The notes beneath the pieces were generated by a model that saw only the letters and a list, made by a program, of their open reading frames with translations, searched no databases and had not been told where the DNA came from. From an uncultured virus (IMG/VR IMGVR_UViG_3300042356_001581) (lineage: Duplodnaviria > Heunggongvirae > Uroviricota > Caudoviricetes), in IMG/VR virus record IMGVR_UViG_3300042356_001581: a DNA stretch of 20,000 bases. The stretch is one strand, 5' to 3'. Below, piece by piece: positions 5,173 to 19,573 of the stretch. Made by a program: the position numbers and the translations under genes. Numbering within the stretch: position 1 is the first letter of the stretch; the number at the start of each line of letters is the position of its first letter.

Positions 5173-5209
5173 AGTTTTAAGAATTTGTTGTTATTAAGTT
5201 TCTTGAGTA

Positions 5210-5217: not shown

Positions 5218-5310
5218 AAAACTTATTTAGAATAAAAAAACTTATTTATAATATTTTTATATTTTTTTTTATTTTTATTAAAATGGACAATGTTCTTTTT
5301 TGGGAATCAA

Positions 5311-5502
5311 TTATAATTTACTTCTTAAAAAATTAAGTGAATAAAATTTACTCGCAACAACATAACCTATTGTACTTCCTTTTAATATTTGCTTGATTAA
5401 CTTGCCAGACTGTAAATTGTAACACAATCCGCATTTTGTAAACACGTAATTTGTAGCGAAATTTAAACGGTAGTTTGCAATATAATTTACAGTAATAGTC
5501 AT
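5311..5502 (-). CDS. Small hypothetical protein (weak NUMOD4/HNH N-terminus-like)
   Basis: 63 aa; YVFTKCGLCYNLQSGKLIK pattern. Confidence 0.5.
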   Translation of the reverse strand: MTITVNYIANYRLNFATNYVFTKCGLCYNLQSGKLIKQILKGSTIGYVVASKFYSLNFLRSKL

Positions 5503-5526
5503 AGTTAATTGTGTATTAAAGTTACT

Positions 5527-5548
5527 GTTAGCGGATAGTTAGCGGATA
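5527..5548 (+). repeat. Tandem GTTAGCGGATA x2 at the array start; candidate attI-like entry site
   Basis: Exact 11 bp direct repeat; the first cassette core GTTA (5538) has no preceding hairpin. Confidence 0.5.
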
Positions 5549-5592
5549 TGGCAGTAGAACCGAAGAACTACCGCCAAATCCAAGTAACAAGA

Positions 5593-5811
5593 TTACTTTT
5601 TAAAAGAAAACTTATCTCCTAAAATCTCTAATCTTTGACCTAAAACTTGCAAATACTCATTCATCAATCTTGATTGTTTGTAAAGCAAATCTTTGTTTTG
5701 TCGGTCTAAATCAACAAAAGCCTGTGTACGCATAAAATCATTTAAGGAATTTGTTTTAGTTGCCAATTCTTGCGCTTCAATAAGAAGTCTGTCGTAAAAT
5801 GAATCTCCCAT
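5593..5811 (-). CDS. Cassette 1: small helical phage protein (crAss001_48-like)
   Basis: RL..E..EL......L..F.....F..L.....LL..Q...M..Y..VL..R pattern recalled from that family. Confidence 0.6.
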   Translation of the reverse strand: MGDSFYDRLLIEAQELATKTNSLNDFMRTQAFVDLDRQNKDLLYKQSRLMNEYLQVLGQRLEILGDKFSFKK

Positions 5812-5869
5812 AATATTTGTGTTTGGGTTTTATAACTCCGCCCAGAAGTTTAGTGGAAGCCACATCCGC

Positions 5870-5994
5870 TAACAGCTTGTATAGTTAATGCGGTCTATGG
5901 CTTAATTTATTGTTCAGTTTGCACTTGGATTGTTCGGTCTTGAATGGAATTATTCGGCTTATTTTTCCGCACTAACCATATAAGCGAACCGTTA
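5870..5994 (+). repeat. Hairpin site A1
   Basis: TAAC-agcttgtatagttaatgcgg ... ccgcactaaccatataagc-gaacc-GTTA. Confidence 0.85.
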
Positions 5995-6008
5995 TATACA
6001 ATAAAAAT

Positions 6009-6386
6009 TTACCATCGCTCTTTTTTGAATATAATTTGTTTATCTAATTTTATTTGATGTATGGTGTGAAATGTCCGTTCTTTTACATATTTTTTAAATG
6101 TGTTGAAAACTTCTTCCGATACCATTTTACTTTTCACATAATAAATATATGGACTTTTACCACTCATATCATCTCTCCACATATTAAAACCATATCTTTC
6201 CCCATTAGGAAAATTATGTCTATGTTCGTGAATTAAATTATATTTTTTTGATTTAGCTTTATATGGTTTAAATTTACTAATAGCATCTACCATTAATTTA
6301 ATATTCTCAATATCATTTTCATCCACATCTGATTTAAGATATGTGAAATCACCATCATTTGTATCAACTTTTATATTTATTATCAT
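6009..6386 (-). CDS. Cassette 2: hypothetical protein
   Basis: 125 aa ORF bounded by IR gttatatacaataaaaat / atttttactgtatataac. Confidence 0.7.
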   Translation of the reverse strand: MIINIKVDTNDGDFTYLKSDVDENDIENIKLMVDAISKFKPYKAKSKKYNLIHEHRHNFPNGERYGFNMWRDDMSGKSPYIYYVKSKMVSEEVFNTFKKYVKERTFHTIHQIKLDKQIIFKKERW

Positions 6387-6428
6387 AATATTATTTTAAA
6401 ATTATCCAACGCACATTTTTACTGTATA

Positions 6429-6476
6429 TAACAAAGTGTAAAAAACATTAAAACGATTTTTTACACTCAACCGTTA
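6429..6476 (+). repeat. Hairpin site A2 (shortest, 48 bp)
   Basis: TAAC-aaagtgtaaaaaa ... ttttttacact-caacc-GTTA. Confidence 0.8.
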
Positions 6477-6485
6477 TGTGCAAGG

Positions 6486-7292
6486 CTACGAAACTGCATC
6501 TAAACGACTATTCGTTATTTCAATAGCCATTGGATTAATGTCGCAACCTATAAAATTTCGGTTCAGTTCTTTACAAACTACTGCTGTTGTTCCCGAACCT
6601 AAATAGTAATCTGCAACTGTATCACCTTCATTTGAACTTGCTTTTATTATTCGTTCTATTAATGCTTTTGGCTTTTGGGTTGGGTATTTTGAATACTCTT
6701 TTGAATTGCCTTTAAGTGTGTGTATTACCATCCAATCTTCCATAATTTTACCTCCGTTTTTAGATAAAGGGCTGTCGGCTTTACCCATCATTGAGTTACT
6801 TCCATACTTACCTCTTTCTTTACTACTTTCGGAATAATCTGTTAATACGCTTTGCCAATTAAATGTATAATCTTTAGTTTTTGCGTAAGAAAATATATTA
6901 TCGTGTTTTGCATTAAATCTCCTTTTGTTGTTGTTTGGCATAGTGTAGCACCATATAATTTCATTTACAAAATTATCATACCCAAAAATATCATCCATTA
7001 TCAACCTAATCCAATGGGATATTCTATAATCCATTTGTAAATAGATAGTACCTGTGCTTTTTAATACTCGGTGCATTTCTTTTAATCGTGGTAAATAATG
7101 TGCTTCAATTTCACTTCTAATCGGTTTTAAGTCTTGGTAATCTCCAAAGTTTCTGCCAGTTCCATAAAGAATATCACAATAAATCAAATCTACACTTTCA
7201 TCAGGTTGCGACAAAAGGAGTTCAAGGTTATCAACCGCCCTGCACATAACACGGGTTTGGCAAAATGGCTGTTCAGTAATTCTATCAATCAT
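6486..7292 (-). CDS. Cassette 3: N6-adenine/N4-cytosine DNA methyltransferase (beta class)
   Basis: Motif IV-like CDILYG at the N-terminus, YPTQKP, motif I DYYLGSGTT, FIGCDIN. Confidence 0.88.
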   Translation of the reverse strand: MIDRITEQPFCQTRVMCRAVDNLELLLSQPDESVDLIYCDILYGTGRNFGDYQDLKPIRSEIEAHYLPRLKEMHRVLKSTGTIYLQMDYRISHWIRLIMDDIFGYDNFVNEIIWCYTMPNNNKRRFNAKHDNIFSYAKTKDYTFNWQSVLTDYSESSKERGKYGSNSMMGKADSPLSKNGGKIMEDWMVIHTLKGNSKEYSKYPTQKPKALIERIIKASSNEGDTVADYYLGSGTTAVVCKELNRNFIGCDINPMAIEITNSRLDAVS

Positions 7293-7366
7293 TCGTTTTT
7301 AATTTTAAAGTTTAGTAATTCTATTTAGCTTCGGGTTCAGCCACTTCACCAAGCCCGATAACGTTA
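7247..7366 (+). repeat. Hairpin site A3 (contains start codon of 6486..7292)
   Basis: TAAC-acgggtttggcaaaatggctg ... cagccacttcaccaagcccg-ataac-GTTA. Confidence 0.88.
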
Positions 7367-7597
7367 GGTGTAATGCCACTCCGCCACTTCACTTCTATCA
7401 AAATGTGTTTGACGTGAAAAATGTTTAGTCCACCAAGCAAAGGCACGAAATGAACCTCCCCATAAATGCTCATAATATCCTCGATACCATTTTTCACCTA
7501 CTTTAAATTTTAACTCGTAATATGATGAAGGCACTACACCTAACAGCACATTGCCAAAAGTGGGGGTTATCGTTTTTAAATCAGCTTTTACACTCAT
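7364..7597 (-). CDS. Cassette 4: hypothetical protein
   Basis: 77 aa; stop codon is the TTA of the GTTA core; start lies in hairpin A4. Confidence 0.65.
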   Translation of the reverse strand: MSVKADLKTITPTFGNVLLGVVPSSYYELKFKVGEKWYRGYYEHLWGGSFRAFAWWTKHFSRQTHFDRSEVAEWHYT

Positions 7598-7666
7598 ATC
7601 AAATTTTGTATTTCAATTAAAGTTTAGTGGTATAAAGCCCCACCTTCGGCAATCTGCAAAACGTTA
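7541..7666 (+). repeat. Hairpin site A4
   Basis: TAAC-agcacattgccaaaagtgggg ... ccccaccttcggcaatctgc-aaaac-GTTA. Confidence 0.88.
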
Positions 7667-7681
7667 GCAGTAATATTGTGG

Positions 7682-7921
7682 CTACTTACCAATAGGTCTA
7701 TTGCAAGTTGCACAGATATAACTACCATTCATTAAATAACATTGAGATTGTTGACAGCCACAATACATACTGCTAACATCGGCTATACGCAAGTTTTTTG
7801 CTTCCGTTAGTCGGTTAATAACATTGTTTGCCTCTATCAACATTTCAATCAATTTGTCTTTTTCTACCATTTGATACATCTCTACTTTTTCAGAGTGTGT
7901 CATTTCAATTACTTGCATCAT
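7682..7921 (-). CDS. Cassette 5: small protein with Cys-rich C-terminus
   Basis: 79 aa; CGC...C...CATC at the C-terminus; first ~49 aa encoded within hairpin A5. Confidence 0.6.
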   Translation of the reverse strand: MMQVIEMTHSEKVEMYQMVEKDKLIEMLIEANNVINRLTEAKNLRIADVSSMYCGCQQSQCYLMNGSYICATCNRPIGK

Positions 7922-7981
7922 ATATTTTAATTTTAGTGTTTCAAATTCGCAAAAAACCTGACGTATAGCCGAGAACCGTTA
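7774..7981 (+). repeat. Hairpin site A5 (longest, 208 bp)
   Basis: TAAC-atcggctatacgcaagttttttgc ... gcaaaaaacctgacgtatagccga-gaacc-GTTA. Confidence 0.85.
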
Positions 7982-7984
7982 TGG

Positions 7985-8287
7985 TTAATATTTGTATTCT
8001 GCTATTTTAGAAGCTAATCCCCAACTTTGCAACTTACCACCGTAGTTAGATATAAATCTAAATACATCGCCCATATAAGTAGGTTCAGATGGTGTATAAA
8101 TATAAGTTCCTGCAATAGTTTCTAATCGTAATTTCCAAGTATGATTATCTTTAAAAACTTTCGCATCGAAACCCATACATAGTTTTAATTCTTCTGCAAT
8201 TAAATTACATTTTTCTTCATTAAACATACTAACCATAACACTCGTTTGGCTCAATGCCTTATTTTCGTTTATATCGTTTTTCATCAC
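7985..8287 (-). CDS. Cassette 6: hypothetical protein
   Basis: 100 aa; start (GTG 8287 or ATG 8284) in hairpin A6. Confidence 0.65.
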   Translation of the reverse strand: MMKNDINENKALSQTSVMVSMFNEEKCNLIAEELKLCMGFDAKVFKDNHTWKLRLETIAGTYIYTPSEPTYMGDVFRFISNYGGKLQSWGLASKIAEYKY

Positions 8288-8352
8288 GTTTTATTTTTAA
8301 TTAGATAATTTAGTTTTCATAACTCGGCACTAAGCCAAGCGAGGGAACGTTA
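8236..8352 (+). repeat. Hairpin site A6
   Basis: TAAC-actcgtttggctcaatgcc ... ggcactaagccaagcgag-ggaac-GTTA. Confidence 0.88.
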
Positions 8353-8571
8353 GCAACTATGCTCTAATTTGTATATTTTCTCTATTTCATCTACTCTTAA
8401 TGGGTCACAATATCTACCTCTTTGATAATTAACAACTCTAAATATGTATTTTTCGGTTAATTTATGTCTTTCTTCCCAATTGACTTTATTCCACCAAGCA
8501 ATAGCACAATTGCTAACAGCATTTTGTGGCAATTGCGGGGTTTGGATTTCTTTTTCCATTTTAGTTTTCAA
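8350..8571 (-). CDS. Cassette 7: hypothetical protein (likely ATG at 8559)
   Basis: Stop codon is the TTA of the core; start in hairpin A7. Confidence 0.6.
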   Translation of the reverse strand: MKTKMEKEIQTPQLPQNAVSNCAIAWWNKVNWEERHKLTEKYIFRVVNYQRGRYCDPLRVDEIEKIYKLEHSC

Positions 8572-8643
8572 TTTAAAGATTAGTATTTTTTTGTATGGTA
8601 TGTGTTAATTCGTCCGCAACTAACCACAAGATGCAAAACGTTA
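8514..8643 (+). repeat. Hairpin site A7
   Basis: TAAC-agcattttgtggcaattgcgg ... ccgcaactaaccacaagatgc-aaaac-GTTA. Confidence 0.85.
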
Positions 8644-8647
8644 TGCC

Positions 8648-8947
8648 TTATTTTGAAGAACGAGACGAACCAAAAGTTAAGATACCTGCTCCAAGAACAA
8701 AACCGAAGTTATACCAACCTCCATTGTTATTATAAGCATAAAATGCAATATCATCAGAAAATAAACTACCAATAAATGAAATTGGCGCAACTATTCCGTG
8801 CCATAAACCGCCCCAAAATCCATAAGGAGAACTTGTAATACAATCTTGTACGTGTGGGCTTACATCGGCACAAGAAGTTAAAGAAAGAAAAACAAGGCAT
8901 AACAGCCATTTGGCAAGATTGCGGGTTAATTTTGTGTTTTGAAACAT
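8648..8947 (-). CDS. Cassette 8: putative lipoprotein/membrane protein
   Basis: Lipobox-like LTSC after a hydrophobic stretch; GFWGGLWHG and GWYNFGF hydrophobic segments. Confidence 0.75.
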   Translation of the reverse strand: MFQNTKLTRNLAKWLLCLVFLSLTSCADVSPHVQDCITSSPYGFWGGLWHGIVAPISFIGSLFSDDIAFYAYNNNGGWYNFGFVLGAGILTFGSSRSSK

Positions 8948-9029
8948 AGTTTTTAAATTTAAAGATTAGTAATATTTTGCGTGTTTGGGTCTTGAATCGT
9001 CCGCAACCTCGCCAAGTGGCAGGACGTTA
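8900..9029 (+). repeat. Hairpin site A8
   Basis: TAAC-agccatttggcaagattgcgg ... ccgcaacctcgccaagtggc-aggac-GTTA. Confidence 0.88.
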
Positions 9030-9038
9030 GGCGCAATG

Positions 9039-9215
9039 CTAATCCAAGACACCTGCCAACCAAATTGGACAAAATATAAGCCAGTACAAAAATCGTTCTT
9101 GTAAACTGACTGCTAAGTTGTCTTTACCTATTGTTTTGCAATCATTCCTCCAAATCAAATAGAATGGAATAAAAAGAACTATTTGCAGTAATACACATAT
9201 CAATATTTTGTTCAT
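9039..9215 (-). CDS. Cassette 9: 58 aa two-TM membrane protein (not in the ORF track)
   Basis: Read manually: MNKILICVLLQIVLFIPFYLIWRNDCKTIGKDNLAVSLQERFLYWLIFCPIWLAGVLD*; fills cassette 9026-9249. Confidence 0.7.
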   Translation of the reverse strand: MNKILICVLLQIVLFIPFYLIWRNDCKTIGKDNLAVSLQERFLYWLIFCPIWLAGVLD

Positions 9216-9245
9216 TTTGTTTCAATTTGTGAGAAGCACTGCACC

Positions 9246-9333
9246 TAACAGCACATAGGCAATAGTTGCCAGAAACCTCTCGGTTAATAATTTAATTTAT
9301 CGTAGGCAACCATCGCCTATCTGCAAAACGTTA
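9246..9333 (+). repeat. Hairpin site A9
   Basis: TAAC-agcacataggcaatagttgcc ... ggcaaccatcgcctatctgc-aaaac-GTTA. Confidence 0.88.
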
Positions 9334-9552
9334 TGGTTTATGCTTCGATTGGTTTTCATAAGAACTTATATTTTTGCTCATATTGAAATAAATAATTGTA
9401 AAAACAATTGCTCCAAATGTTACGATTCCCCAATCTCCAATTTTATCAGATGCTTTATATGTAAATAATGCCGTTCCAAACCAACACATAATCGAACACC
9501 ATTTCATTTGTCTTTTAAAGTTTTTCGCTTCTTTAATAAATTCTTCACTCAT
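9331..9552 (-). CDS. Cassette 10: small two-TM membrane protein
   Basis: 73 aa, two hydrophobic helices; stop codon is the TTA of the core. Confidence 0.7.
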   Translation of the reverse strand: MSEEFIKEAKNFKRQMKWCSIMCWFGTALFTYKASDKIGDWGIVTFGAIVFTIIYFNMSKNISSYENQSKHKP

Positions 9553-9583
9553 TACGTTTTCGTTTTATGAACCGCACTAACCA

Positions 9584-9710
9584 TAACAAGTGTTTGGCAA
9601 AAAAGCGGGTTCGGTTATTAATTTAAAATTTGTTTTGTGTCTTTATAATTCAGGCTTAATCGAAGTTTTATGCTTTCTTAATCGCTTCTTCGCCAAGCAC
9701 TCGAACGTTA
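9584..9710 (+). repeat. Hairpin site A10
   Basis: TAAC-aagtgtttggcaaaaaagcg ... cgcttcttcgccaagcact-cgaac-GTTA. Confidence 0.85.
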
Positions 9711-10502
9711 GTGGCAATACTCCGAAGCCCTCCGAACAGCGACATCGTAATATTGTTTTTCCTTTTCTATTCCAATTGATTTGCGATTTAATTTGATACA
9801 AGCCAAGTTTGTTGTACCGCTTCCTGTTGTGTTATCCAATACCATATCACCTTCATTAGTATATGATTTCACAAGCATTTCAAGTAAAGCAAGTGGTTTC
9901 TGTGTTGGGTGTATCGTTCCATCAAGTTTTGTTTTTTGTTTATCTGAAGCAAAAACTTGTACACTTCTTGGGTATCTGTCAGTTTCTCCGCCACCGCTTA
10001 CATCTTGCTTTACTTTTCCATACACTTCTGTTTTATTGCAAACTTCGGCTTTCTTGGTATAGGTATTTACAGGCTTATGTCCTTCTGTTTTTTGTGGATT
10101 AAACTTTGGTGTTTTATTGTAAAATACTAAAATGTTTTCGTGTGCTTTCATAGGCATTTTCTTTGCATTAAAATATCCTGTTGCTTGTGTTTTCTCCCAA
10201 ATCCATTCGTATTTTAACCATTCCAAATTTGAGCAACCAAGCACTTTATCAAATGGTGTTTGTGCAAATAAAATTACCACCCCATTATAATTTAGTATTC
10301 GTTTATATTGTTCCCAAAGTTTATTCAAATCCAAAACAGAATCCCATTTGCAGTTAGTAGTACCATAAGGCAAATCGCAAATAATAGCATCAATTGATTT
10401 ATCCTCAATAAAAGGAAAAACATCGAAACAATCTGCGTTCACAAAAGTACTGCCACTAACACGGGTTTGGCAAAATGGCTGTTCAGTAATTCTATCAATC
10501 AT
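9708..10502 (-). CDS. Cassette 11: N6-adenine/N4-cytosine DNA methyltransferase (beta class)
   Basis: ICDLPYG, YEWIWEK, HPTQKP, LDNTTGSGTT, IGIE. Confidence 0.92.
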   Translation of the reverse strand: MIDRITEQPFCQTRVSGSTFVNADCFDVFPFIEDKSIDAIICDLPYGTTNCKWDSVLDLNKLWEQYKRILNYNGVVILFAQTPFDKVLGCSNLEWLKYEWIWEKTQATGYFNAKKMPMKAHENILVFYNKTPKFNPQKTEGHKPVNTYTKKAEVCNKTEVYGKVKQDVSGGGETDRYPRSVQVFASDKQKTKLDGTIHPTQKPLALLEMLVKSYTNEGDMVLDNTTGSGTTNLACIKLNRKSIGIEKEKQYYDVAVRRASEYCH

Positions 10503-10527
10503 TAGTTTTTAATTTAAAGATTAGTTT
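10457..10527 (+). repeat. Truncated hairpin site A11 (left half, copy of A3)
   Basis: First 47 nt identical to 7247-7293; right arm and GTTA core absent. Confidence 0.75.
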
Positions 10528-10854
10528 TTACTTAGTCGTTATCCGTAACAACAAAATACACCACCCGACTTTATCCGACTTCATAAAATCTTGTATTTCA
10601 GAAATTAGTTGCTCTTTAGTTTCAGTTACAAATTCTTGCCTTCCATCAGGTTGTGGATTTCCATTATTCATTTTGTAGGCAAACCAAATTTTAGCATAAT
10701 ATTCACTACTTTCTTCATCAGGATTTTCCACTATACAAGATTTTATTCTACTATCAAGCGAAGTTATCTCATCAGAAGTAACTGCACCTAACAGTGGTTT
10801 TGACTTATTGCCACATTCGGCTTCATTTAATGATTGTTTTGTACTTGTATTCAT
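10528..10854 (-). CDS. Cassette 12: hypothetical protein
   Basis: 108 aa; start in hairpin A12. Confidence 0.65.
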   Translation of the reverse strand: MNTSTKQSLNEAECGNKSKPLLGAVTSDEITSLDSRIKSCIVENPDEESSEYYAKIWFAYKMNNGNPQPDGRQEFVTETKEQLISEIQDFMKSDKVGWCILLLRITTK

Positions 10855-10917
10855 TGGTTTTTAATTTAAAGATTAGGTCTTATTTTATTGGCAACAAGAC
10901 AAAGCCACCAAACGTTA
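10789..10917 (+). repeat. Hairpin site A12
   Basis: TAAC-agtggttttgacttattgcca ... tggcaacaagacaaagccac-caaac-GTTA. Confidence 0.85.
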
Positions 10918-10926
10918 TGAGCAAGT

Positions 10927-11229
10927 TTACTGACCGTCTTCGTAAAGACTCATTTCAAAACCGTGAGAGTAAAAATCTCCAAGTCCACCCGCATCAATAA
11001 CTATTTTGAAATTATAATCTTCGTGAGAAACTACAATTTGAGTTCCTTCATCATCTTCTATGTTTTCAGTTGGTATTCCAACACATTCTATAAAGTGTTG
11101 CATACTTTGATTATTATCCATACTCATATTATCATTTTCATTAATAATACGATATGATGTTTCTCCTTTTGCAAATTCATCAAACATTTGTGTTATCGAA
11201 TTTGGTATCTCATAAATTTCTGTTTTCAT
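10927..11229 (-). CDS. Cassette 13: acidic hypothetical protein
   Basis: 100 aa ORF; IR gttatgagcaagtt / aacctgctcataac. Confidence 0.7.
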   Translation of the reverse strand: MKTEIYEIPNSITQMFDEFAKGETSYRIINENDNMSMDNNQSMQHFIECVGIPTENIEDDEGTQIVVSHEDYNFKIVIDAGGLGDFYSHGFEMSLYEDGQ

Positions 11230-11263
11230 AATAATATTTTGTTTAAATTACACAACCTGCTCA

Positions 11264-11391
11264 TAACAGCAATTTGGCAATATGTCGGTTTTGGTCTTTA
11301 ATTTAATAGTTGTTTTGTACTTGTAGAAATTCGGTATTTCCGAATGTATTAGCTTCCTTAAACCGACACATCGTCAAGTTGCATAACGTTA
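11264..11391 (+). repeat. Hairpin site A13
   Basis: TAAC-agcaatttggcaatatgtcggttt ... aaaccgacacatcgtcaagttgc-ataac-GTTA. Confidence 0.88.
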
Positions 11392-11400
11392 GTAGCAAGA

Positions 11401-11625
11401 CTACGTTTTATCTTTCAAAGACAAAACCTTGAATGTTGGGTAGCCTTTAGGTATTCCAAAACCAAAACCAATATAAACAGAATGATGTCCCCAACATAAA
11501 CCTATTCCGTAAACACTTACGATTTCTAATATAGTCAATACTCCAAATAAATATGGTGTAATTGCAAAATCTTCTTTATTTAATTTGGTATTTTGATAAC
11601 CTCCTATAATTTTTGGTTTTCTCAT
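11401..11625 (-). CDS. Cassette 14: small hydrophobic hypothetical protein
   Basis: 74 aa ORF filling the cassette. Confidence 0.65.
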   Translation of the reverse strand: MRKPKIIGGYQNTKLNKEDFAITPYLFGVLTILEIVSVYGIGLCWGHHSVYIGFGFGIPKGYPTFKVLSLKDKT

Positions 11626-11662
11626 TTCAATAATATTTAGTTTTAATAATCCGTCCAGCTAC

Positions 11663-11735
11663 TAACACACGTTTGTAGCTAGTGGAGGAATCTACACTTC
11701 CGAATACGCCACCATCTACAAGCGTTGGAAGGTTA
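11663..11735 (+). repeat. Hairpin site A14
   Basis: TAAC-acacgtttgtagctagtgg ... ccaccatctacaagcgt-tggaag-GTTA. Confidence 0.8.
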
Positions 11736-11742
11736 GCAGTAA

Positions 11743-11937
11743 TTATTCCCAATCTTCCTTATCAGCTTGAGTTTCTGCCATTACAGCTATTATTTGCCTT
11801 TCACGTTCTGTAAATTCAAACCAATTAGTTTGCCAATCGTAAGGAACGTAATTTCTCCAATCGTGAACTTTTCCTTTTTCTTCAAACTTTGGATTTTCAA
11901 TATCTATTAATTCTGTAAAATTTTCAAATATGTTCAT
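11743..11937 (-). CDS. Cassette 15: hypothetical protein
   Basis: ATG at 11937 (MNIFENF...) preferred to TTG at 11967; HDWRNYVP motif. Confidence 0.65.
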   Translation of the reverse strand: MNIFENFTELIDIENPKFEEKGKVHDWRNYVPYDWQTNWFEFTERERQIIAVMAETQADKEDWE

Positions 11938-11961
11938 CTCGTTTAGTATTATAACTACTGC

Positions 11962-12087
11962 TAACAACGGTTATACAATAGTTGGGTTAATTGTTTAATT
12001 TAAAGTCTGTTTTGTGTCGAGATAATTTGTGTTAATCGGAAAATTACGGCTATCTTATCCCAACCATCGTATAGCCGTCAAACGTTA
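11962..12087 (+). repeat. Hairpin site A15
   Basis: TAAC-aacggttatacaatagttggg ... cccaaccatcgtatagccgt-caaac-GTTA. Confidence 0.88.
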
Positions 12088-12096
12088 GCAGTAATA

Positions 12097-12993
12097 CTAT
12101 ATTCCATCTCCGAATGAAGTCACTACATTAAAATCTTTTTCTTTTCTTTTTTCTTCCACCCTCTTTAAAGAAATATTAAAATAATCCATATTATTCTCAA
12201 TTCCGATAAAGTTCCTATTTGTGTTTATACAGGCAATTCCTGTTGTCATTGAGCCACCAAACATATCTAAAACAGTTTGATATTCTTTTGTGAAAGTTTT
12301 TATTAAGTTTTCCATTAGTTTTAACGGCTTTTGGGTTTCGTGTAACTTGTCTGAAATATGCGAACTTTCTTCAATTAAATTTGTTTTGTAAATTTCAGAA
12401 GAAAAAGTACCTGTACCATACTTCAAATAACAATCTGTAATAGTTCCACCAATCTTATATGGCTTAAACATATACACAATTGGTTCTACTATTGGTGCTA
12501 AATTACCCAATCTTCTATTATCGCTATAATCTGAATTTCTTTTACCTATTACTTGACCTATCCTTTGTGCTTTAAATGGTGCTTTTTTCTTATTCCAACT
12601 AATTACATCTTTTAATATTAGACCGCTATTTTCTCCTGCAACCGTAAACCTATGTTGATATTGCCTTCCTGTAAAACATAATATTGGAGACGCAGGTTTC
12701 ATAATTCGATAACACTCTTTTAAAAAACTTTCGCAAAATATTTGAAATTCAATACTTATTTGCTTGTCTTTATCACTCCATCCATTTTTAGGCTTACCTC
12801 TACTTTTAAATATTTTACTATTTTGTTGCGCAGGGGAACTCCCTAATAATGCAGTATTGGTATTAGAATGTTTAACATCCCAATCACTAAATGAAATCCC
12901 ATAAGGAATATCTGAAATTATAGCATCAATACTTTCATCTGCTATCAATTTCATTTGTTCTATTGCATCTCCGTATCTTAAATCTATTGTCAT
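12097..12993 (-). CDS. Cassette 16: N6-adenine/N4-cytosine DNA methyltransferase (beta class)
   Basis: ISDIPYG, HETQKP, LDMFGGSMTT, FIGIE. Confidence 0.9.
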   Translation of the reverse strand: MTIDLRYGDAIEQMKLIADESIDAIISDIPYGISFSDWDVKHSNTNTALLGSSPAQQNSKIFKSRGKPKNGWSDKDKQISIEFQIFCESFLKECYRIMKPASPILCFTGRQYQHRFTVAGENSGLILKDVISWNKKKAPFKAQRIGQVIGKRNSDYSDNRRLGNLAPIVEPIVYMFKPYKIGGTITDCYLKYGTGTFSSEIYKTNLIEESSHISDKLHETQKPLKLMENLIKTFTKEYQTVLDMFGGSMTTGIACINTNRNFIGIENNMDYFNISLKRVEEKRKEKDFNVVTSFGDGI

Positions 12994-13087
12994 AATTTTA
13001 TTTTAATATTTTGCCATCGCTTTAAAAAAGAAAAGAAAAAGGTTCAGTTCTCCGAATGAGCATTTGTGGTTAATTACCGTACTACTG

Positions 13088-13148
13088 TAACACCACCTAT
13101 ACGCAAGTTTTGTGAAAAACAAAACCTGACGTATAGCTGTAAACGTTA
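13088..13148 (+). repeat. Hairpin site A16
   Basis: TAAC-accacctatacgcaagttttgt ... acaaaacctgacgtatag-ctgtaaac-GTTA; arms related to A5. Confidence 0.8.
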
Positions 13149-13152
13149 GCCG

Positions 13153-13605
13153 TCATTCTAAAACGACCGCATCCAACGACTTTAATCTGTTTAAAATATA
13201 AAGGTTTGGTCTTATGTATTTATTTTCTCTTCTGAATTGTTCTTTGTCGATTTCTGACAAAAATTTATCATACAAAAAAGTTGCAACCGCACCGCTTCGA
13301 GAAATTCCAGCAGAACAATGAACCATAAATACTGACTTTTCTTTATGTTTTTCGATAAAATCAACTATTTCTTTTAGTTCTTTATCATTTGGTTTTTCAT
13401 ATTTTAACTCACCATTTTCATATAAATCTTCTTCAATATCCCACATTTTAACTTGCAGAAAATTGTCTATTGATTTATCAAATTTTTGCTCGTTATTATC
13501 AATATCGAGTATTGAAATAAAACAAGCATAGTCGTAATATTTAAACTCTTTATCAGTAAAGTTTTTATCGAAAACTAATTTTGGTATTGCTTTTATTTGC
13601 TTCAT
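13153..13605 (-). CDS. Cassette 17: protein-tyrosine/dual-specificity phosphatase-like protein
   Basis: Catalytic HCxxGxxRS motif (VHCSAGISRS) and a C-terminal PN motif. Confidence 0.85.
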   Translation of the reverse strand: MKQIKAIPKLVFDKNFTDKEFKYYDYACFISILDIDNNEQKFDKSIDNFLQVKMWDIEEDLYENGELKYEKPNDKELKEIVDFIEKHKEKSVFMVHCSAGISRSGAVATFLYDKFLSEIDKEQFRRENKYIRPNLYILNRLKSLDAVVLE

Positions 13606-13638
13606 TTTAAATTATTTAGTGGAAAAAGAACGAACGGC

Positions 13639-13756
13639 TAAAAAAGTGTATAAGCAATAACCGTTAGGCGTTTTTAACTATTGCGGTTGTTAATATTTAT
13701 TTTATATTTCTAATCAAGTTTTGTGTTCGGCAACTTCGCCAAGCCTACAAAAGTTA
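13639..13756 (+). repeat. Degenerate hairpin site A17
   Basis: Core reads TAAA instead of TAAC; right end acttcgccaag-cctacaaaa-GTTA does not pair with the left arm. Confidence 0.55.
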
Positions 13757-13972
13757 TAAAGCATTTAAAGCTGTAACTATTTTATTCGCCATTTCATCAC
13801 AATATTCTTCGCCGTTATCATAAACTAAATGGCAAACCACTTTATTCATATCGTTGTCTATAATTGCGAATAAAGCAAAGTCAGCTACAATTACTTTATT
13901 GATAGAAAAACGGCTTATAACAGCGGTTTTTCCGTATTGTGGAATTTGGGTATTTTTTAAAAGCTTAGTCAT
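13754..13972 (-). CDS. Cassette 18: hypothetical protein
   Basis: 72 aa; stop codon is the TTA of the core; start lies in the half-site beginning at TAAC 13918. Confidence 0.65.
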   Translation of the reverse strand: MTKLLKNTQIPQYGKTAVISRFSINKVIVADFALFAIIDNDMNKVVCHLVYDNGEEYCDEMANKIVTALNAL

Positions 13973-13990
13973 AACTTTAAAATTTAATTA

Positions 13991-15745
13991 TTATTTGTTT
14001 TTTATTTTAATGAACGGTAAAAAATCTTCTAATTCTTTAATCATATCGAACTCCACTTGCTTTGTTTTTGGAAAGCACTTAGAAATATCTTTTAAGGTAT
14101 TCCTAATATCCCTACCGCTAAAAGGCTTGTATTTTGCCCATAGTTTTTCAATAGTAGGCGTTTCAATCGTCATACCGAAGTTTTCAGAAAGTATATTCCA
14201 TAACTGAACCGTTTCTTCAAAAGTTGGTAAATCATACTTGATATGTAATGTAACCCTTGATATTATAGCATCATCAATTGTGTCAGGTCTATTTGAGGTT
14301 AAAAATAAAATCCCGTTGTAGTATTCCATTAATCGTAGAAACGTTCCTACTATGCAATTTTGAAGTATATCGTTGCCTCTTTTGTAAATATAACTATCTG
14401 CTTCGTCAATAAGTAAAACTGCGTCCCACTTTTCGGCACGATACAGTATCTTATTTAGATTATTTTCTATGTCAGCAACACTTATACCAAGTTGTGATGA
14501 TTGAACGCAATACAGCGGTTTTTTCATCACCTCCGAATAAACTTCAGCAGTAAGTGTTTTTCCAAGACCCGATTCTCCTGTGCTTAAAATTACGATACCG
14601 CCACTTTTTCCTGAAATTAAATCTTCAAAATTATTTTTAGAACCGATTAACGATGAAAGTATTTTTTTTCTTTGCTGACTAATAACAAGCTTATCTATGA
14701 TTTCGGAGTTGTAAACGTAGGGCAAAATATTATTGACGTGAACTATTGCATATCTAAAAGAAGTAATGTCGTAAGTTAAAACGTATGGGTGTTCAGGTAT
14801 CTCAACAGTACCAAAACTGTCACTAGAAACAGTATAAGTCAAAGACGCACTTTTAAGGTTATCTACAACAAGTTTGTTTGACTTATTTTCATCATTCAAA
14901 TCTTTCCAGCTTCTAATACCACCCTTGCTATCTGAAATAACATAGCCTTTAGTTTCACAAGTGTAAACCTTACCTATTTGTTTGGAAACCAAATTAGCTT
15001 TTTCTAAATCTTTTTGGTAAACATCAAAGTAATCGTCATCCATTAGCATAATGTTTTTTCCTGCTAATATTTTAGACAATAAAAAACTATCTTTTTTGTT
15101 TATAGTTTTTGCTTTTAGCTTCTTTTTACTTTTATCATCGTCATCGTCATCGTCATCATTTTGATTAGATAAAGTATATTCGTTAAACTCCTCTTCGCTA
15201 ATTAAAGTAATGTCGCTTTTATAGAAATTTATATTTTTGGATTGCTTGTCTTTTTTTATTTCAGAATCACTATTCCAATGACTGTTTGATTCGATTGAAA
15301 TGTAAGTAAAACCCAAACTCATATAAGCATCATCATCTCTACTTCTTGCTTTATATTTTACAGACGTTACTGCGCAAGGAACTACCATACCGTCAGGATT
15401 CATTTTTAAAACCCATTTGTATTTCGAGTTTTTGAAAATTGATATTAGGGTTTTCTCCAACTGCGGTAATGAAGTGATTATTGCATCTTTTGGATTGCTT
15501 AGATTCTTAATCCAATTGTTTAGTGTGGAAATGGTTTTCCCATTACACTTTTTCTCGACAAGCAACTTTTCCAATAGTTCGCAATCTTCTTTTTTAACTT
15601 CAGATAAATCTAAGTAAACAGACTGGGCTTTGTCATAGTTTTTTTGACTTAAAGAGTCCCTAACAGACCAACTTAAATGATTGTTTAAAAAGTTAGCAGA
15701 AACTCTTAATTCGTCAATAATTGATAGGCTTAATGTTATATTCAT
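13991..15745 (-). CDS. AAA+ ATPase (single C-terminal AAA module, long N-terminal domain)
   Basis: Walker A GESGLGKT, Walker B LLIDEAD, sensor-1 LTSNR, D.AIISR; ATG 15745 preferred because the TTG at 15772 overlaps the promoter. Confidence 0.88.
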   Translation of the reverse strand: MNITLSLSIIDELRVSANFLNNHLSWSVRDSLSQKNYDKAQSVYLDLSEVKKEDCELLEKLLVEKKCNGKTISTLNNWIKNLSNPKDAIITSLPQLEKTLISIFKNSKYKWVLKMNPDGMVVPCAVTSVKYKARSRDDDAYMSLGFTYISIESNSHWNSDSEIKKDKQSKNINFYKSDITLISEEEFNEYTLSNQNDDDDDDDDKSKKKLKAKTINKKDSFLLSKILAGKNIMLMDDDYFDVYQKDLEKANLVSKQIGKVYTCETKGYVISDSKGGIRSWKDLNDENKSNKLVVDNLKSASLTYTVSSDSFGTVEIPEHPYVLTYDITSFRYAIVHVNNILPYVYNSEIIDKLVISQQRKKILSSLIGSKNNFEDLISGKSGGIVILSTGESGLGKTLTAEVYSEVMKKPLYCVQSSQLGISVADIENNLNKILYRAEKWDAVLLIDEADSYIYKRGNDILQNCIVGTFLRLMEYYNGILFLTSNRPDTIDDAIISRVTLHIKYDLPTFEETVQLWNILSENFGMTIETPTIEKLWAKYKPFSGRDIRNTLKDISKCFPKTKQVEFDMIKELEDFLPFIKIKNK

Positions 15746-15769
15746 AGTGTTTTTTTTGTTTCTTGTTTG

Positions 15770-15777
15770 CAAATATA
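15770..15777 (-). promoter_or_regulatory. Bacteroidota -7 promoter element TATATTTG
   Basis: TAnnTTTG match 25 bp upstream of ATG 15745; the leader AAAAAAACACTATG is shared with the gene starting at 446. Confidence 0.6.
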
Positions 15778-15830
15778 GTATTATTATTTAAAATAATTAT
15801 TATTTTAAATAATAATATTAATTTTTAATC

Positions 15831-16124
15831 TTAACCCTCTTTTTGTTTATATTTTTCAGGAACTATGTCGTTGTGATGATGAAACAAAGAAGCCCAAACC
15901 AAACTATTTGCTATGGTTATGGTTCTTGCTAAATATTCTTGATTTATTGCCTTTTCAAGCAAACCAATCAAGTAATCAAAATTAGCTTCCAAGTCTTCGC
16001 ACAATTCTAAAATGGTCTTTACATTGTAATTTATAAATTGCTCGTCAAAAAGCAATGAATTAGGCTCTCTATTCATACAGTAAATCAAAACTTGTTCGTT
16101 GTGATATTTCGGCTTTTTAGTCAT
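15831..16124 (-). CDS. Hypothetical protein
   Basis: 97 aa ORF in operon packing. Confidence 0.65.
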   Translation of the reverse strand: MTKKPKYHNEQVLIYCMNREPNSLLFDEQFINYNVKTILELCEDLEANFDYLIGLLEKAINQEYLARTITIANSLVWASLFHHHNDIVPEKYKQKEG

Positions 16125-16128
16125 TTGA

Positions 16129-16638
16129 TTATTTGTTAGGTGAACCTATTTCTTTTAATGCGGTTTCGGTAAGTTTTATTGAGTCAAACTTTGCTAAAGA
16201 TTCGATATTAGTTAATCCTGAACTTAACCCCCAAGTTTGAGTAATCTTGTCAAGCCAGAACAAATGAATTAAACCCGAAACATCTGAAATTGATTTTGAG
16301 TAAGCAATTCCATTATTTACATCAACAACCTTAAAATCTTTAATTAAAACACGTTCTTTTGCTTCGTTGTATTTTTCTAAATTATACAACCAATCTTTTG
16401 CGTTTTGCTCTTCAGTACAATCTGCGTAATGTTCTTGCAATGGCTCTTCTAAAAAATTACCGAATTCATCGCAAGGAACAACCATTCCAATTTCAATATC
16501 TTTAAGTAAGAAGTCTGCATATTTTTGAATCAAATAAAATCTTCTTGTTCGGTCTGATTGCTGATGACCGATTGACTGAATTTCCATTCCAATATTTCCT
16601 AGCTTCTTTACGAAGCTAATCATAGGTATTAATTTCAT
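16129..16638 (-). CDS. Hypothetical phage protein, paralog of 16635..17159
   Basis: Shared KYA..L......M.VPC...G...E.P block. Confidence 0.75.
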   Translation of the reverse strand: MKLIPMISFVKKLGNIGMEIQSIGHQQSDRTRRFYLIQKYADFLLKDIEIGMVVPCDEFGNFLEEPLQEHYADCTEEQNAKDWLYNLEKYNEAKERVLIKDFKVVDVNNGIAYSKSISDVSGLIHLFWLDKITQTWGLSSGLTNIESLAKFDSIKLTETALKEIGSPNK

Positions 16639-17159
16639 AATCGTATTTGTTTTTTAAAGTTGTCGGTTAGTTTAAATTCGACACCTGTTTTTAATAAATC
16701 TTCAATAGTATTAATAGGCGTTTGAATATTTTTAATTGCTTCAATAAACATCGCAGGTTTACCATCACGAAAGTATATTACATTATCTTCAAAAATAACC
16801 TCGTTTCTAATTCCTGTTTCAACTCCTGAAAGACTATTGATAAAAAATCCCCAACCTTGAAATAAAACCGTATTACAGGCTTCTTCATATTCTGAATTTT
16901 GACCATAACAACCCTCGATACTGCATTTACCTCCTATACAATAATCAATAGGACTGCAAGACTTTTTACAAGGTTTTGGCTTTTCCATAATATCTCCATT
17001 TGACTGACAAGGAACAAACATATTTTTTTTAATTGGTTGCTTTAATATTTTAGCATATTTAACAACTCTGTCAATGTATAAGCTTTCGGTTATTTGGTCT
17101 GTAAATAACAAATCAAATTGTTTAATATTAAAATCCGTTGTGCTAATTAAATTTTCCAT
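16635..17159 (-). CDS. Hypothetical phage protein, paralog of 16129..16638
   Basis: Same blocks plus a Cys-rich insert; 4 bp ATGA overlap with the downstream gene. Confidence 0.75.
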   Translation of the reverse strand: MENLISTTDFNIKQFDLLFTDQITESLYIDRVVKYAKILKQPIKKNMFVPCQSNGDIMEKPKPCKKSCSPIDYCIGGKCSIEGCYGQNSEYEEACNTVLFQGWGFFINSLSGVETGIRNEVIFEDNVIYFRDGKPAMFIEAIKNIQTPINTIEDLLKTGVEFKLTDNFKKQIRL

Positions 17160-17162
17160 AAT

Positions 17163-17468
17163 TTACTTTATTGATTTTCCTCGCTTATTCATAGAAGCGT
17201 AGGGGATTAATTTATCGGTGTTATTTTGTTCTACAAATTGCACAACATTTAATCGCTCTGCAATACGAATCATTTGTGATTGATGACCGAGTTTATCGAA
17301 GAAAGTTTTACATACAATTTCCTCACCGTTTATTGATGCTTTGTGGCAAACAAAATAACTTTGTTTTTCGGCGATTTCATTTAATAAATCTTTCGCTCTT
17401 TTTGGACTAACTATTCGGTCTTTTGACAATAGACAGTTATGACAACATTCTTTATAAACTTTTAGCAT
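17163..17468 (-). CDS. Cys/His-containing hypothetical phage protein
   Basis: CCHNC...F.CHK...C pattern; ATG 17468 avoids overlap with the upstream gene. Confidence 0.65.
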   Translation of the reverse strand: MLKVYKECCHNCLLSKDRIVSPKRAKDLLNEIAEKQSYFVCHKASINGEEIVCKTFFDKLGHQSQMIRIAERLNVVQFVEQNNTDKLIPYASMNKRGKSIK

Positions 17469-17484
17469 AAATTTACGATTAATA

Positions 17485-17679
17485 TTAATTAGAAATAACC
17501 CCGTATTGTTCGGCAAAACTACCGCCTTTTTTTATCAGAAAAACAAACTCTTCGTAAGTCAAATTTACACCGCCACACATACGCATTGCTAACTTGTGCC
17601 AACCACTAACATCGTCCATTCTTTTCAAGTAGTTTTCGTAAAGTTTTTTAAGTTCTTTTTTTGTTTTTAATTTAGCCAT
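17485..17679 (-). CDS. Hypothetical protein
   Basis: 64 aa ORF with A-rich start context. Confidence 0.6.
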   Translation of the reverse strand: MAKLKTKKELKKLYENYLKRMDDVSGWHKLAMRMCGGVNLTYEEFVFLIKKGGSFAEQYGVISN

Positions 17680-17704
17680 TTTCTTTTTTAAATTTTTCTT
17701 ATAA

Positions 17705-17926
17705 TTACTTATAACTTTTTATTATTTCCGTGATACTTTTTTTATCGACAGGCATAGCGTGTACACCTCCGATAAAAGGGTCGGAATCATAAAACTGCAT
17801 TTTACCGTTTGGGTCGTAATCAACAAAGCCATTAATACGGTTATGTTGATTCATAATTTGCAATACTCTTTCCCAATCTTTTTTTTCTATAGGAGGAAAT
17901 AAATTTTTATCCGTTGATTGTTCCAT
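17705..17926 (-). CDS. Hypothetical protein
   Basis: 73 aa ORF in operon packing. Confidence 0.6.
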   Translation of the reverse strand: MEQSTDKNLFPPIEKKDWERVLQIMNQHNRINGFVDYDPNGKMQFYDSDPFIGGVHAMPVDKKSITEIIKSYK

Positions 17927-17928
17927 AA

Positions 17929-18603
17929 TTATTCAAAACTAATTGCTTGTAATTCTTCTAACTTTTCTTGAATCCATTCCGATAGTAATTCTTGACGTTT
18001 TTCTTCAATGAAATTTTCGGCATCATCTTCCCATCCATCAATATCAGTATTTAAACTTTGTTCATCGGCAATAGCCTGTTTAAGTTCTTCTTCGTCTTGT
18101 TCTTCGTAATCGAAATCAATACTTTCAATTTCGCTAATAGCACTTTCAAGAGAATCAACTCTTTCTTGAAGCAAATCTGCCGTTGGAGAATACTGTAAAT
18201 TTTCTGGCATATTATCATAAGATTCCTGCGTAGTATCTCGCAAGTCTTCCAACTCTTCTTTTATGCTTTCAGCGAAATCATTTAATTCCTCTGATGAATC
18301 GGTTGAAAAATCTTCGATTTGCTCTGCGATTGAATACAAAGTGGAATAGTATGCGCTTTGAGTTAATTCCGATGCTCTCGGACGAGTTTTACCGTATTGT
18401 TTTGGAGAATTTTGGAATTGCCACCAATAATAACTTTCGCCCCTTGCTATAAAAATAGTATCGGTATCATCTCTCGGAATTGTTCTATCGGTTTTAGATA
18501 AAGTTTGCCCTTGTCTTTTACCTTTTTTGCTAACGTACTCTACTCGCTTTCCGTAATTGAAAATGTCTTTCTGTGCTTTGTTTACAAAATTTGCTCTTGC
18601 CAT
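17929..18603 (-). CDS. Hypothetical phage protein (basic N-terminus, acidic helical C-terminus)
   Basis: 224 aa; GESYYWW and NMPENLQ motifs. Confidence 0.75.
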   Translation of the reverse strand: MARANFVNKAQKDIFNYGKRVEYVSKKGKRQGQTLSKTDRTIPRDDTDTIFIARGESYYWWQFQNSPKQYGKTRPRASELTQSAYYSTLYSIAEQIEDFSTDSSEELNDFAESIKEELEDLRDTTQESYDNMPENLQYSPTADLLQERVDSLESAISEIESIDFDYEEQDEEELKQAIADEQSLNTDIDGWEDDAENFIEEKRQELLSEWIQEKLEELQAISFE

Positions 18604-18611
18604 TTTATTTA

Positions 18612-18854
18612 TTATTTATTATCTATTATAAATTTTACATTAAATATTTCTTTTACTTCTCTGAATTTTTTCACCCCGTTATAACTCATTTTATTTTCTT
18701 TTGCGTAATCTGGTATAGTTTTTAAATTAAGACACTTTCCACATTGTTCAATAAATTGCACTAAGTCGTTATTCGTAAAATTACCATCGTACATTTTATC
18801 ATCTAAAAAAGACAATAATTTTTGTCCGTTGCTTGATATTATTGGCTTTTCCAT
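18612..18854 (-). CDS. Small hypothetical protein, possible HTH
   Basis: TIPDYAKENKMSYNGVKK; ATG at 18854. Confidence 0.6.
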   Translation of the reverse strand: MEKPIISSNGQKLLSFLDDKMYDGNFTNNDLVQFIEQCGKCLNLKTIPDYAKENKMSYNGVKKFREVKEIFNVKFIIDNK

Positions 18855-18889
18855 TTGGTTCAATTTATTGAATGGTGCTTAGTAAATAG

Positions 18890-19090
18890 TTATGCAACAG
18901 TTTGCGAAAGAGTAAACCGAGTAAATTTTGTTTCTAAATCTTCTTCAGTTGTGTATTTAAAATTTATAGAATCTAGTAATTTTTTAAAGTTTTCGGCATC
19001 AGAAGACAATAAGCGAATAGTCTTTTTTTCTTGGAATAGCTCAAGCGTTTTACCCCAGCTTGGATTTGGTATTATAGTTGTGATTTTCAT
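18890..19090 (-). CDS. Cassette 19: hypothetical protein
   Basis: 66 aa; stop codon is the TTA of the core. Confidence 0.6.
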   Translation of the reverse strand: MKITTIIPNPSWGKTLELFQEKKTIRLLSSDAENFKKLLDSINFKYTTEEDLETKFTRFTLSQTVA

Positions 19091-19124
19091 TTCGTTTACG
19101 TTTACGTTTAAAAAACCGATTGCA

Positions 19125-19251
19125 TAACAATATATTGTAGCAATTAAGGCTTTGGTTATTAATTTATTTATGTTCTTGTACTTGGTTTTATTGGGTCTTT
19201 AATCGAAGCATAAGGCTTTCTTATCCTTAACTGCTACAATAATGAACGTTA
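19125..19251 (+). repeat. Hairpin site A19
   Basis: TAAC-aatatattgtagcaattaagg ... ccttaactgctacaata-atgaac-GTTA. Confidence 0.85.
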
Positions 19252-19263
19252 GAGGTAATTTGT

Positions 19264-19485
19264 TTACGCATCTAACCACCTTTCAATTTCATTTGGTTTA
19301 TATGTTTTACCTGCAAGTGCTACCCAAAATTGGTTATGTTTATTAAATTTTAATGGTTGTCTAACCCCATCAGCATAACATATAAACCAAAGATTTTCGG
19401 TAGGTGTTCTATCGTCACCATTAACCCACAAACTACCGCTAACAGCAGGTTTATTCAATGCGGATTTTTCGTTATTATTGTTCAT
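19264..19485 (-). CDS. Cassette 20: hypothetical protein
   Basis: 73 aa; start in hairpin A20. Confidence 0.65.
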   Translation of the reverse strand: MNNNNEKSALNKPAVSGSLWVNGDDRTPTENLWFICYADGVRQPLKFNKHNQFWVALAGKTYKPNEIERWLDA

Positions 19486-19564
19486 TTCTGCTTCTATTTA
19501 ATTTTTTTATTAGTTTGAAATATTGTGCTTCTAAGTCCACACTAAATAAACCTGCGAACCGTTA
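19440..19564 (+). repeat. Hairpin site A20
   Basis: TAAC-agcaggtttattcaatgcgga ... tccacactaaataaacctgc-gaacc-GTTA. Confidence 0.88.
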
Positions 19565-19573
19565 GCAGTAATA

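Follow-up and report, generated by a model that had tools for sequence, protein, structure and literature searches.

We analysed a stretch of 20,000 nucleotides (nt; the window), the last 20 kb of the 139,577-nt uncultured virus record IMGVR_UViG_3300042356_001581, which carries arrays of gene cassettes separated by integron-like hairpin sites. Most of these sites have an A.C mismatch in both the outer and the inner stem, and the two mismatches are one feature, the mirror position 11 of two boxes that are predicted recombinase-binding sites. The mismatches probably mark a DNA strand: in Bacteroidota, an Xer-like recombinase would recognise the T that the folded minus strand presents at position 11 in both boxes. 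An earlier note on the window had already assigned the mark to the minus strand, and that assignment is supported; however, the note missed the mirror boxes, the A:T match in the attI-like array starts, and a likely enzyme that is not of the classical IntI type and is absent from the phage.

The virus record was recovered in lake-water metagenomes. Its host is probably a member of the Bacteroidota, since the closest cultured relatives of its methyltransferase cassettes are in Cellulophaga, Flavobacterium, and Polaribacter phages (52-57%). The long open reading frames (ORFs) of the window are all encoded by the minus strand. The window holds 20 TAAC...GTTA hairpin sites (A1 to A20) and two bare GTTA starts (5538 and 18889), all between 5538 and 19575; the A, R, and L labels of sites and arms follow integron usage. 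With 20 attC-type sites and no integrase nearby, this is a cluster of attC sites lacking an integrase (CALIN), and no match to the tyrosine recombinase profile PF00589 was obtained at E up to 1 across the 139,577-nt record.

Mismatches in the window and in related sites

The outer stem was scored in the 19 cassettes with both ends, including the one starting at 18889. As had been claimed, all 19 left ends have A at position 11, counted from the core G, and in 15 of them an in-register C faces it. In the other four, the cassettes ending at A5, A16, A17, and A19, the partner lies one base off, which is the offset that the earlier note had described. An extra base ahead of the position-11 partner, which moves the partner to position 12, is a recurrent end variant (18889-19128 and 13145-13642 in the window; loci L187, L289, and L331 elsewhere). 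Outer positions 5-10 and 12-15 are cassette specific and pair with the cassette's own far end at 83%, compared to 37% with the ends of other cassettes, a difference reached in 0 of 100,000 permutations. From base composition, A.C has a chance of 0.054 per cassette, giving about 3e-16 for 15/19, with cassettes that are not independent.

The A.C mismatch claimed for the inner stem at +15 after TAAC was also recovered, with A in 20/20 left arms and A.C in 12 of the 14 sites aligned at the standard 4-nt offset (4 sites with other offsets were skipped). The two remaining aligned sites, A5 and A7, have the inner A.C after a 1-nt bulge, and A19 also has A.C. A third, weaker A.C occurs at inner +12 (7/14 sites). 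When mismatch types were tabulated on the plus strand, inner stems had 26 A.C versus 12 G.T and outer stems 19 versus 0. The predominance of A.C was thereby upheld but a single polarity was not, as inner +6 is G.T on the plus strand, the opposite polarity, in 10/14 window sites. G:T pairs are enriched on the bottom strand of the window stems, as in classical integrons.

A search with the right-arm motif matched prokaryote genomes at 123 loci, of which 80 were listed and nearly all of those are from Bacteroidota, and viral contigs at 55 loci. Sites at these loci were called from stem identity and the 4-nt spacer asymmetry, with no use of mismatch type. With seed matches included, position 11 is A in 137 of 138 cassettes and A.C in 111, and inner +15 is A.C in 263/303 sites. 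With the 117 seed sites removed and later loci added, the set comprised 275 more sites, drawn from Bacteroidota and viruses of Bacteroidota. The earlier note had named conservation in a larger set as the test of its claim beforehand, and the A.C pattern holds in these 275 sites. The cultured Flavobacterium phage tooticki6-1 has seven cassettes of the family, with A.C at position 11 in all and genes antisense.

The inner segment from +5 to +19 is a box that mirrors the outer box: positions 1 and 8 are G, position 3 is T, and position 11 is the mismatched one. In a four-arm logo of the non-seed sites, position 11 of the top strand, read outwards, is A in 255/275 R' and 256/275 L'' arms, and the bottom strand has G there in 212/275 R'' and 226/275 L' arms; T occupies position 3 and G mostly position 8, in the same register. 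Folding of the bottom strand consequently places T.G at position 11 in both boxes, and folding of the top strand places C.A. Watson-Crick repair at position 11 is rare (2/126 non-seed cassettes and 9/275 inner boxes). Positions 5-7 are variable, the commonest base reaching 30-50%, and own-end pairing extends to 15 bp. All sites share ancestry, and the counted pairs and cassettes are not independent, so position 11 could be a functionless base frozen from an ancestral site. However, position 11 holds at 93% and is seldom repaired, in contrast to its neighbours at 5-7 and 12-14, which vary freely and are compensated, and this makes such an accident very improbable.

Array polarity, crossover, and folding

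Polarity was examined without reference to the mismatch. Among 459 sites (pairs not independent), pairs with only the upstream cassette in common keep the hairpin (mean identity, 0.82; 17/26 at >=0.8) and diverge past GTT or GTTA. Pairs with only the downstream cassette in common have a hairpin identity of 0.55 (2/20 at >=0.8), compared to 0.47 for unrelated pairs. In the window, the cassette ends and hairpins of A9 and A10 precede different cassettes in loci L331 and L167, respectively. Arrays open with a bare GTT, preceded mostly by A and not by C as in hairpin arms. The linkage of hairpins to the left cassette and the bare GTT at array starts place the crossover in the GTT of the right arm (R').

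The strand cut by tyrosine recombinases is the one that reads the box first and the spacer second. From this chemistry, the crossover in the R' GTT, and the bottom-strand rule of classical sites, the minus strand is the likely substrate, that is, the bottom strand and the one cut, and array polarity would be plus; recombination of the bottom strand is likewise suggested by the crossover position together with the modelled folds. The earlier claim of plus polarity, a recombined minus strand, and antisense genes is therefore supported independently of the wobble, by hairpin linkage, crossover, bare left starts, and the C before GTT.

These results also bear on the possibility that the plus strand is the substrate and that the unpaired A.C is a flipped-out mark replacing the extrahelical bases of classical sites. 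The mismatch is mirror symmetric on the top-strand fold too, A is more invariant (93%) than its partner (77-82%), +6 is a G.T on the top strand, and HattCI gave the related site P12002L_attC1 the opposite polarity. However, if an outer-box monomer cut the top strand, the TAAC arm would hold the crossover and hairpins would move with the right-hand cassette, contrary to what was observed, and bare GTT begins arrays and does not end them. We consider a top-strand substrate quite improbable.

The dif site is a 28-bp double-stranded site with an 11-6-11 layout and a crossover within the 6-nt centre. If the window sites acted double stranded like dif or pdif, the asymmetric A-type and C-type arms would serve two recombinases or two modes. 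Each plus-strand half-site does read C(-11)...core...A(+11), the central region of the R''-L'' half is 6 nt long, and the neighbouring enzyme is Xer-like; as in XerA and XerC/XerD systems, there is an Xer-fold recombinase without the IntI insertion and two inverted arms with a TTA-type inner edge. In contrast to dif and pdif, the sites form long hairpins with co-varying stems, an asymmetric spacer, and cassette arrays, and the crossover is at R', where a double-stranded central region would be 10 nt. Double-stranded action does not need the arms to co-vary as base pairs across 40-200-nt loops and whole cassettes (83% versus 37%), and only one recombinase gene is found at arrays. We regard double-stranded action as improbable.

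Both strands were folded to examine the claim that the minus strand is the folding strand. The bottom strand was more stable in 17/17 modelled circle junctions (mean, -3.9 kcal/mol) and in 12/17 array hybrids (mean, -1.9 kcal/mol). The minus strand is thus favoured, but by a modest energy difference, and the plus strand folds as well, forming the same core pair at a probability of >=0.93 in 14/17 circle junctions. The outer stem past position 11 forms in circle junctions and barely in array hybrids (bottom-strand position 13 at <=0.03 in 15/17), a difference that would favour insertion over excision in these models. The stability difference could by itself account for the wobbles, which would then stabilise the bottom hairpin with no base being read. 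Classical attC sites are likewise richer in G:T pairs on the bottom strand, with averages of 1.24 versus 0.39 on the top strand (Nivina 2016, PMC5027507). However, stabilisation needs no fixed position, no fixed A-left/C-right orientation, no mirror symmetry, and no T in attI; moreover, the core folds on the top strand as well, and the +6 mismatch is in favour of that strand. A purely thermodynamic role on the same strand is unlikely, although it deserves more weight than the other alternatives.

Gene orientation separated the wobble from the transcript. Of 92 chromosomal cassettes, 78 are sense, 13 antisense, and 1 unclear (41 intervals with nonmatching ends were dropped), and of 58 viral cassettes, 52 are antisense, none sense, and 6 unclear (31 intervals dropped). 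In the sense chromosomal cassettes, A.C stays on the top strand, which is the mRNA strand, at outer position 11 in 69/78 and at inner +15 in 68/78. The wobble tracks site polarity, independent of transcript and gene orientation. The earlier note had offered selection of the wobble in the mRNA as its alternative; there it would be a G.U pair that acts on stability, termination, or the start of translation. In the window phage and in the antisense viral cassettes, the strand with the wobble is also the coding one, and gene starts lie in hairpin loops. This alternative nevertheless fails on the sense host cassettes, and the outer pair spans an entire cassette or joins the ends of different cassettes; we find it scarcely credible. 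Phage cassettes appear to have normal site polarity and inverted genes, co-directional with phage transcription as judged from the ORFs. Chromosomal loci with antisense cassettes are L008, L010, L016, L038, L044, L048, and L073.

Array starts, recombinase, and the proposed strand mark

Bacteroidota arrays adjoin a tyrosine recombinase gene. Among 106 recombinase genes, each with >=1.5 kb of downstream DNA, same-polarity sites lie downstream of 33 and opposite-polarity sites at 3; after exclusion of loci chosen for holding a site, the same-polarity count is 22/90. A bare start lies 49-311 nt downstream of 25/106 genes, its 15-mer pairing with the far end of the first cassette, and seven further distinct bare starts, five of them viral, are divergent from the recombinase (13/14 or better). 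An attI-like site beside the integrase, as in classical integrons, is thus present in the wider family, and none is found in the window phage, which is integrase-less.

The left arms of the 25 attI-like sites mirror the right arm (T-16 in 18, T-15 in 17, G-14 in 12, C-13 in 16, T-9 in 21, and A-8 in 23). Right-arm position 11 is A in 25/25, and both arms carry A:T there (left, 18/25). T-16 in these host arms exceeds a background of 29% (p=1e-5), and an independent set of 29 viral-contig bare starts has T-16 in 18, C-16 in 2, and A-8 in 25 (p=0.005). The phage's three bare starts carry T-16, T-9, and A-8. A 43-nt element (84%) common to the starts at window 18853-18895 and C1:15115-15073 (C1 coordinates belong to the same virus record) has a 14-nt palindrome upstream of the attI-like arm.

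On TIGR02249 (cut-off, 265), the recombinases beside arrays reach 155-192 bits, with the match split into two stretches, and about 36 residues of VchIntIA (2a3v) have no counterpart, so that the I2 insertion of IntI is missing. The best profile is NF040815 and the best structure match 4a8e, indicating an Xer fold. The enzyme is likely to be the compact, nonclassical, I2-less Xer-like recombinase adjoining the arrays. On a tree of 46 rows, left after frameshifted, partial, duplicate, and short-flank loci were dropped, the array recombinase is separate from three chromosomal XerC/D-like proteins. The labels on this tree are noisy, several rows marked "none" having arrays, and the tree neither supports nor excludes a dedicated array clade. 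Most viral rows form one supported branch of 8. Some phages own a recombinase of this family, divergent from the array top strand (L150, L157, L158, L160, L320, L321, and L331).

In the strand-mark mechanism that we propose, the recombinase would need T at position 11 in both boxes, on the strand running towards the core. A double-stranded attI-like site would offer this T as T:A, and only the folded bottom strand of a hairpin site would offer it, as T.G. The G partner would keep the T paired on the bottom strand and would put C there on the folded top strand and on one arm of each double-stranded half-site. With A as the partner the two strands would be equal, and with C or T the T would be unpaired, leaving G alone to do both jobs. 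Because each left end carries A and each right end C, the wobble would be restored in every hybrid site after shuffling. The rarity of A:T repair is as expected if repair would abolish strand choice. The +6 mismatch corresponds to position 2 of the inner box, beside the would-be cut site, and may, speculatively, hold the inner box inactive. A phage with sites and no recombinase would borrow the enzyme of its host or of a co-infecting phage in trans. We infer from the sequences both that an enzyme reads the T and that the adjacent I2-less recombinase is this enzyme.

Several observations weigh against this mechanism, in addition to the ready folding of the top-strand core. The sequences fit a read base A, the complement, as well as T, which is favoured by the strand assignment alone. 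The opposed +6 mismatch of the window recurs as G.T on the top strand in 142/275 non-seed sites, and one P12002L cassette has A.A at position 11. T-16 is a preference and not invariant (72% in hosts and 62% in viruses; G in 4/25). The phage's three bare starts rank only moderately on the host attI matrix, at 8, 12 (the start at 18889), and 31 (the start at 5538) of 1368 GTTA sites, and two of the three are homologous. Most recombinase genes have no detected array, and attI-bearing rows are unclustered on the tree (368/500 shuffles as low). Four lake-metagenome contig sets, compared with 5200-12050, showed neither a joint that skips a cassette at G|TT nor a circle junction; contigs lose rare forms, the runs may be the source of the window DNA, and the comparison ended short of the array's right part.

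Relation to known systems and layout of the arrays

The sites resemble those of classical integrons in their AAC...GTT hairpins between cassettes, R' GTT crossover, C before GTT, unpaired central spacer, and variable loop, and further in an attI-like entry site beside a tyrosine recombinase, bottom-strand G:T enrichment, and host genes sense to the top strand. In contrast to classical attC sites, the outer box is about 15 bp and cassette specific, the 7-bp consensus GTTRRRY/RYYYAAC is not found, the R''-L'' arm has no fixed extrahelical bases, and most inner stems are gapless at the 4-nt offset. Four extra nt stand in the spacer, on the L'-R' arm. The wobbles occupy fixed mirror positions, whereas those of classical attC sites are a statistical bias. 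Unlike IntI, the family recombinase has no I2 insertion, and in most hosts its gene lies upstream of attI in the same orientation. Genes are sense to the top strand in the chromosomal cassettes (78/92) but antisense in the window phage and in 52/58 viral cassettes. On three tests of membership, this integron-like system falls outside the classical integrons.

In classical sites, the bottom strand is cleaved at AA|C of R' (PMC5027507), and use of the top strand relocates the crossover to R'' (Bouvier 2009, PMC2727003). Strand choice depends mainly on extrahelical bases (PMC2727003; Mukhortava 2019, PMC6393395), which are docked by the I2 helix of integron integrases, and the published view ties single-strand recombination to I2 (PMC7790495). 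Bacteroidota are named among integron-bearing phyla, without detail in that text (PMC8618304). Qi et al. 2023 reported a CALIN in Polaribacter phage P12002L (PMC9892861), a Bacteroidota phage that, like the window phage, has attC clusters without an integrase and orphan DNA methyltransferases. Its site P12002L_attC1 belongs to the window's site family as a short-loop member, comparable to A2. In that study, it was handled as a classical attC and drawn in the opposite polarity, was cloned with 7-nt outer arms, and was the sole one of six sites without reported IntI1 recombination (PMC9892861). This failure is weak evidence, coming from one site with shortened arms. The available text of Qi et al. 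2023 describes no fixed wobble, cognate enzyme, or attI (PMC9892861).

Apart from the P12002L site, full-text searches, which did not cover subscription papers or figures, turned up no account of the site family, nor, again outside subscription papers, of fixed mirror wobbles, an absence of fixed extrahelical bases, or a recombinase without I2. It is possible, although we advance it only tentatively, that Bacteroidota and their phages have a second, independent system of single-strand cassette recombination. In this system an I2-less Xer-like enzyme would pick the strand by the T in mirror T.G pairs and not by extrahelical bases; it may resemble the integrase ancestor that preceded I2, and phages would keep their own pool of inverted cassettes. 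If so, a widespread I2-less cassette system with fixed wobbles would directly test the I2 view of single-strand recombination, and the strand mark predicts strand choice from a single base at two positions. Such a system would also account for arrays escaping integron searches and for the failure of the sole family member tried with IntI1, and would explain how Bacteroidota phages stock methyltransferases and other small genes.

All sites of the window are on the plus strand. The first bare, attI-like start (5522-5552) has left-arm bases T-16, T-15, C-13, T-9, and A-8, core G at 5538, and the position-11 A at 5548. An exact 11-bp tandem duplication occupies 5527-5548, each copy opening with core GTTAG, and the second copy alone pairs fully with the far end of the first cassette. 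The hairpin sites are given below with their extent, the end of TAAC, and the core G. A1 (5859-6005; 5873 and 5991) has outer C at 5863, inner A at 5888, inner C at 5972, and outer A at 6001, and the corresponding bases of A4 (7530-7677; 7544 and 7663) are at 7534, 7559, 7644, and 7673. A2 (6418-6487; 6432 and 6473) belongs to the same short-loop class as P12002L_attC1. A3 (7236-7377; 7250 and 7363) has a left inner arm identical to that of A11 and contains the start of the methyltransferase ORF at 6486-7292 (minus strand). A5 (7763-7992; 7777 and 7978) has its outer partner shifted by one base and, like A7 (8503-8654; 8517 and 8640), a 1-nt bulge in the inner stem. A6 (8225-8363; 8239 and 8349), A8 (8889-9040; 8903 and 9026), A9 (9235-9344; 9249 and 9330), and A10 (9573-9721; 9587 and 9707) follow.

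Further along are A12 (10778-10928; 10792 and 10914), A13 (11253-11402; 11267 and 11388), A14 (11652-11746; 11666 and 11732), and A15 (11951-12098; 11965 and 12084), of which the last has an 83% copy at C1:14483-14330. A16 (13077-13159; 13091 and 13145) is short and lacks one base of the outer arm. Decay is visible in places. A11 (10446-10490; TAAC end at 10460) and A18 (13907-13950; TAAC end at 13921) retain the left arm only, the cassette ending at A12 has no left end (10460-10790), and A17 (13628-13767; TAAA core end at 13642, G at 13753) is decayed or chimeric, with arms of two different sites joined (13642-13753). The second bare, attI-like start (18873-18903; T-16, T-9, A-8) has G at 18889 and the position-11 A at 18899. 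It is followed by A19 (19114-19262; 19128 and 19248) and A20 (19429-19575; 19443 and 19561), after which the next cassette begins like that after A15, with identity from the core onward.

Cassette ORFs of the first array (5593-13972) are all on the minus strand. They include three N6/N4 DNA methyltransferases (6486-7292, 9708-10502, and 12097-12993), a crAss001_48-like protein (5593-5811), and a phosphatase-like protein (13153-13605); the others have no Pfam match. The second array (18890-19999) has minus-strand ORFs at 18890-19090 and 19264-19485 and a methyltransferase-like ORF, also on the minus strand, that runs up to 19999 and is interrupted by the contig end. Rfam covariance models, including Flavo-1 (RF01705), gave 0 matches above the gathering score in the window and 0 matches in the whole phage record (G000) or in G306 and G307. 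The loops of the sites at 7250-7363, 8517-8640, 8903-9026, 10460-10520, and 10792-10914 hold the start codons and N-termini of several cassette genes. AT-rich motifs (families D4 and D8-D10) are common to hairpin loops and are perhaps promoters or translation signals.

A DUF932 protein is encoded at 4255-5172, ahead of the first array, and an AAA ATPase gene with a weak IteA-like match lies between the arrays at 13991-15772. Elsewhere in the record, a long minus-strand block (C1:35360-105082) contains many small membrane-type ORFs, a P-loop ORF (63771-64586), and ORFs of 1300-2460 amino acids. A third array, small and decayed, occupies the minus strand at C1:14330-15090, and its genes are antisense as well.

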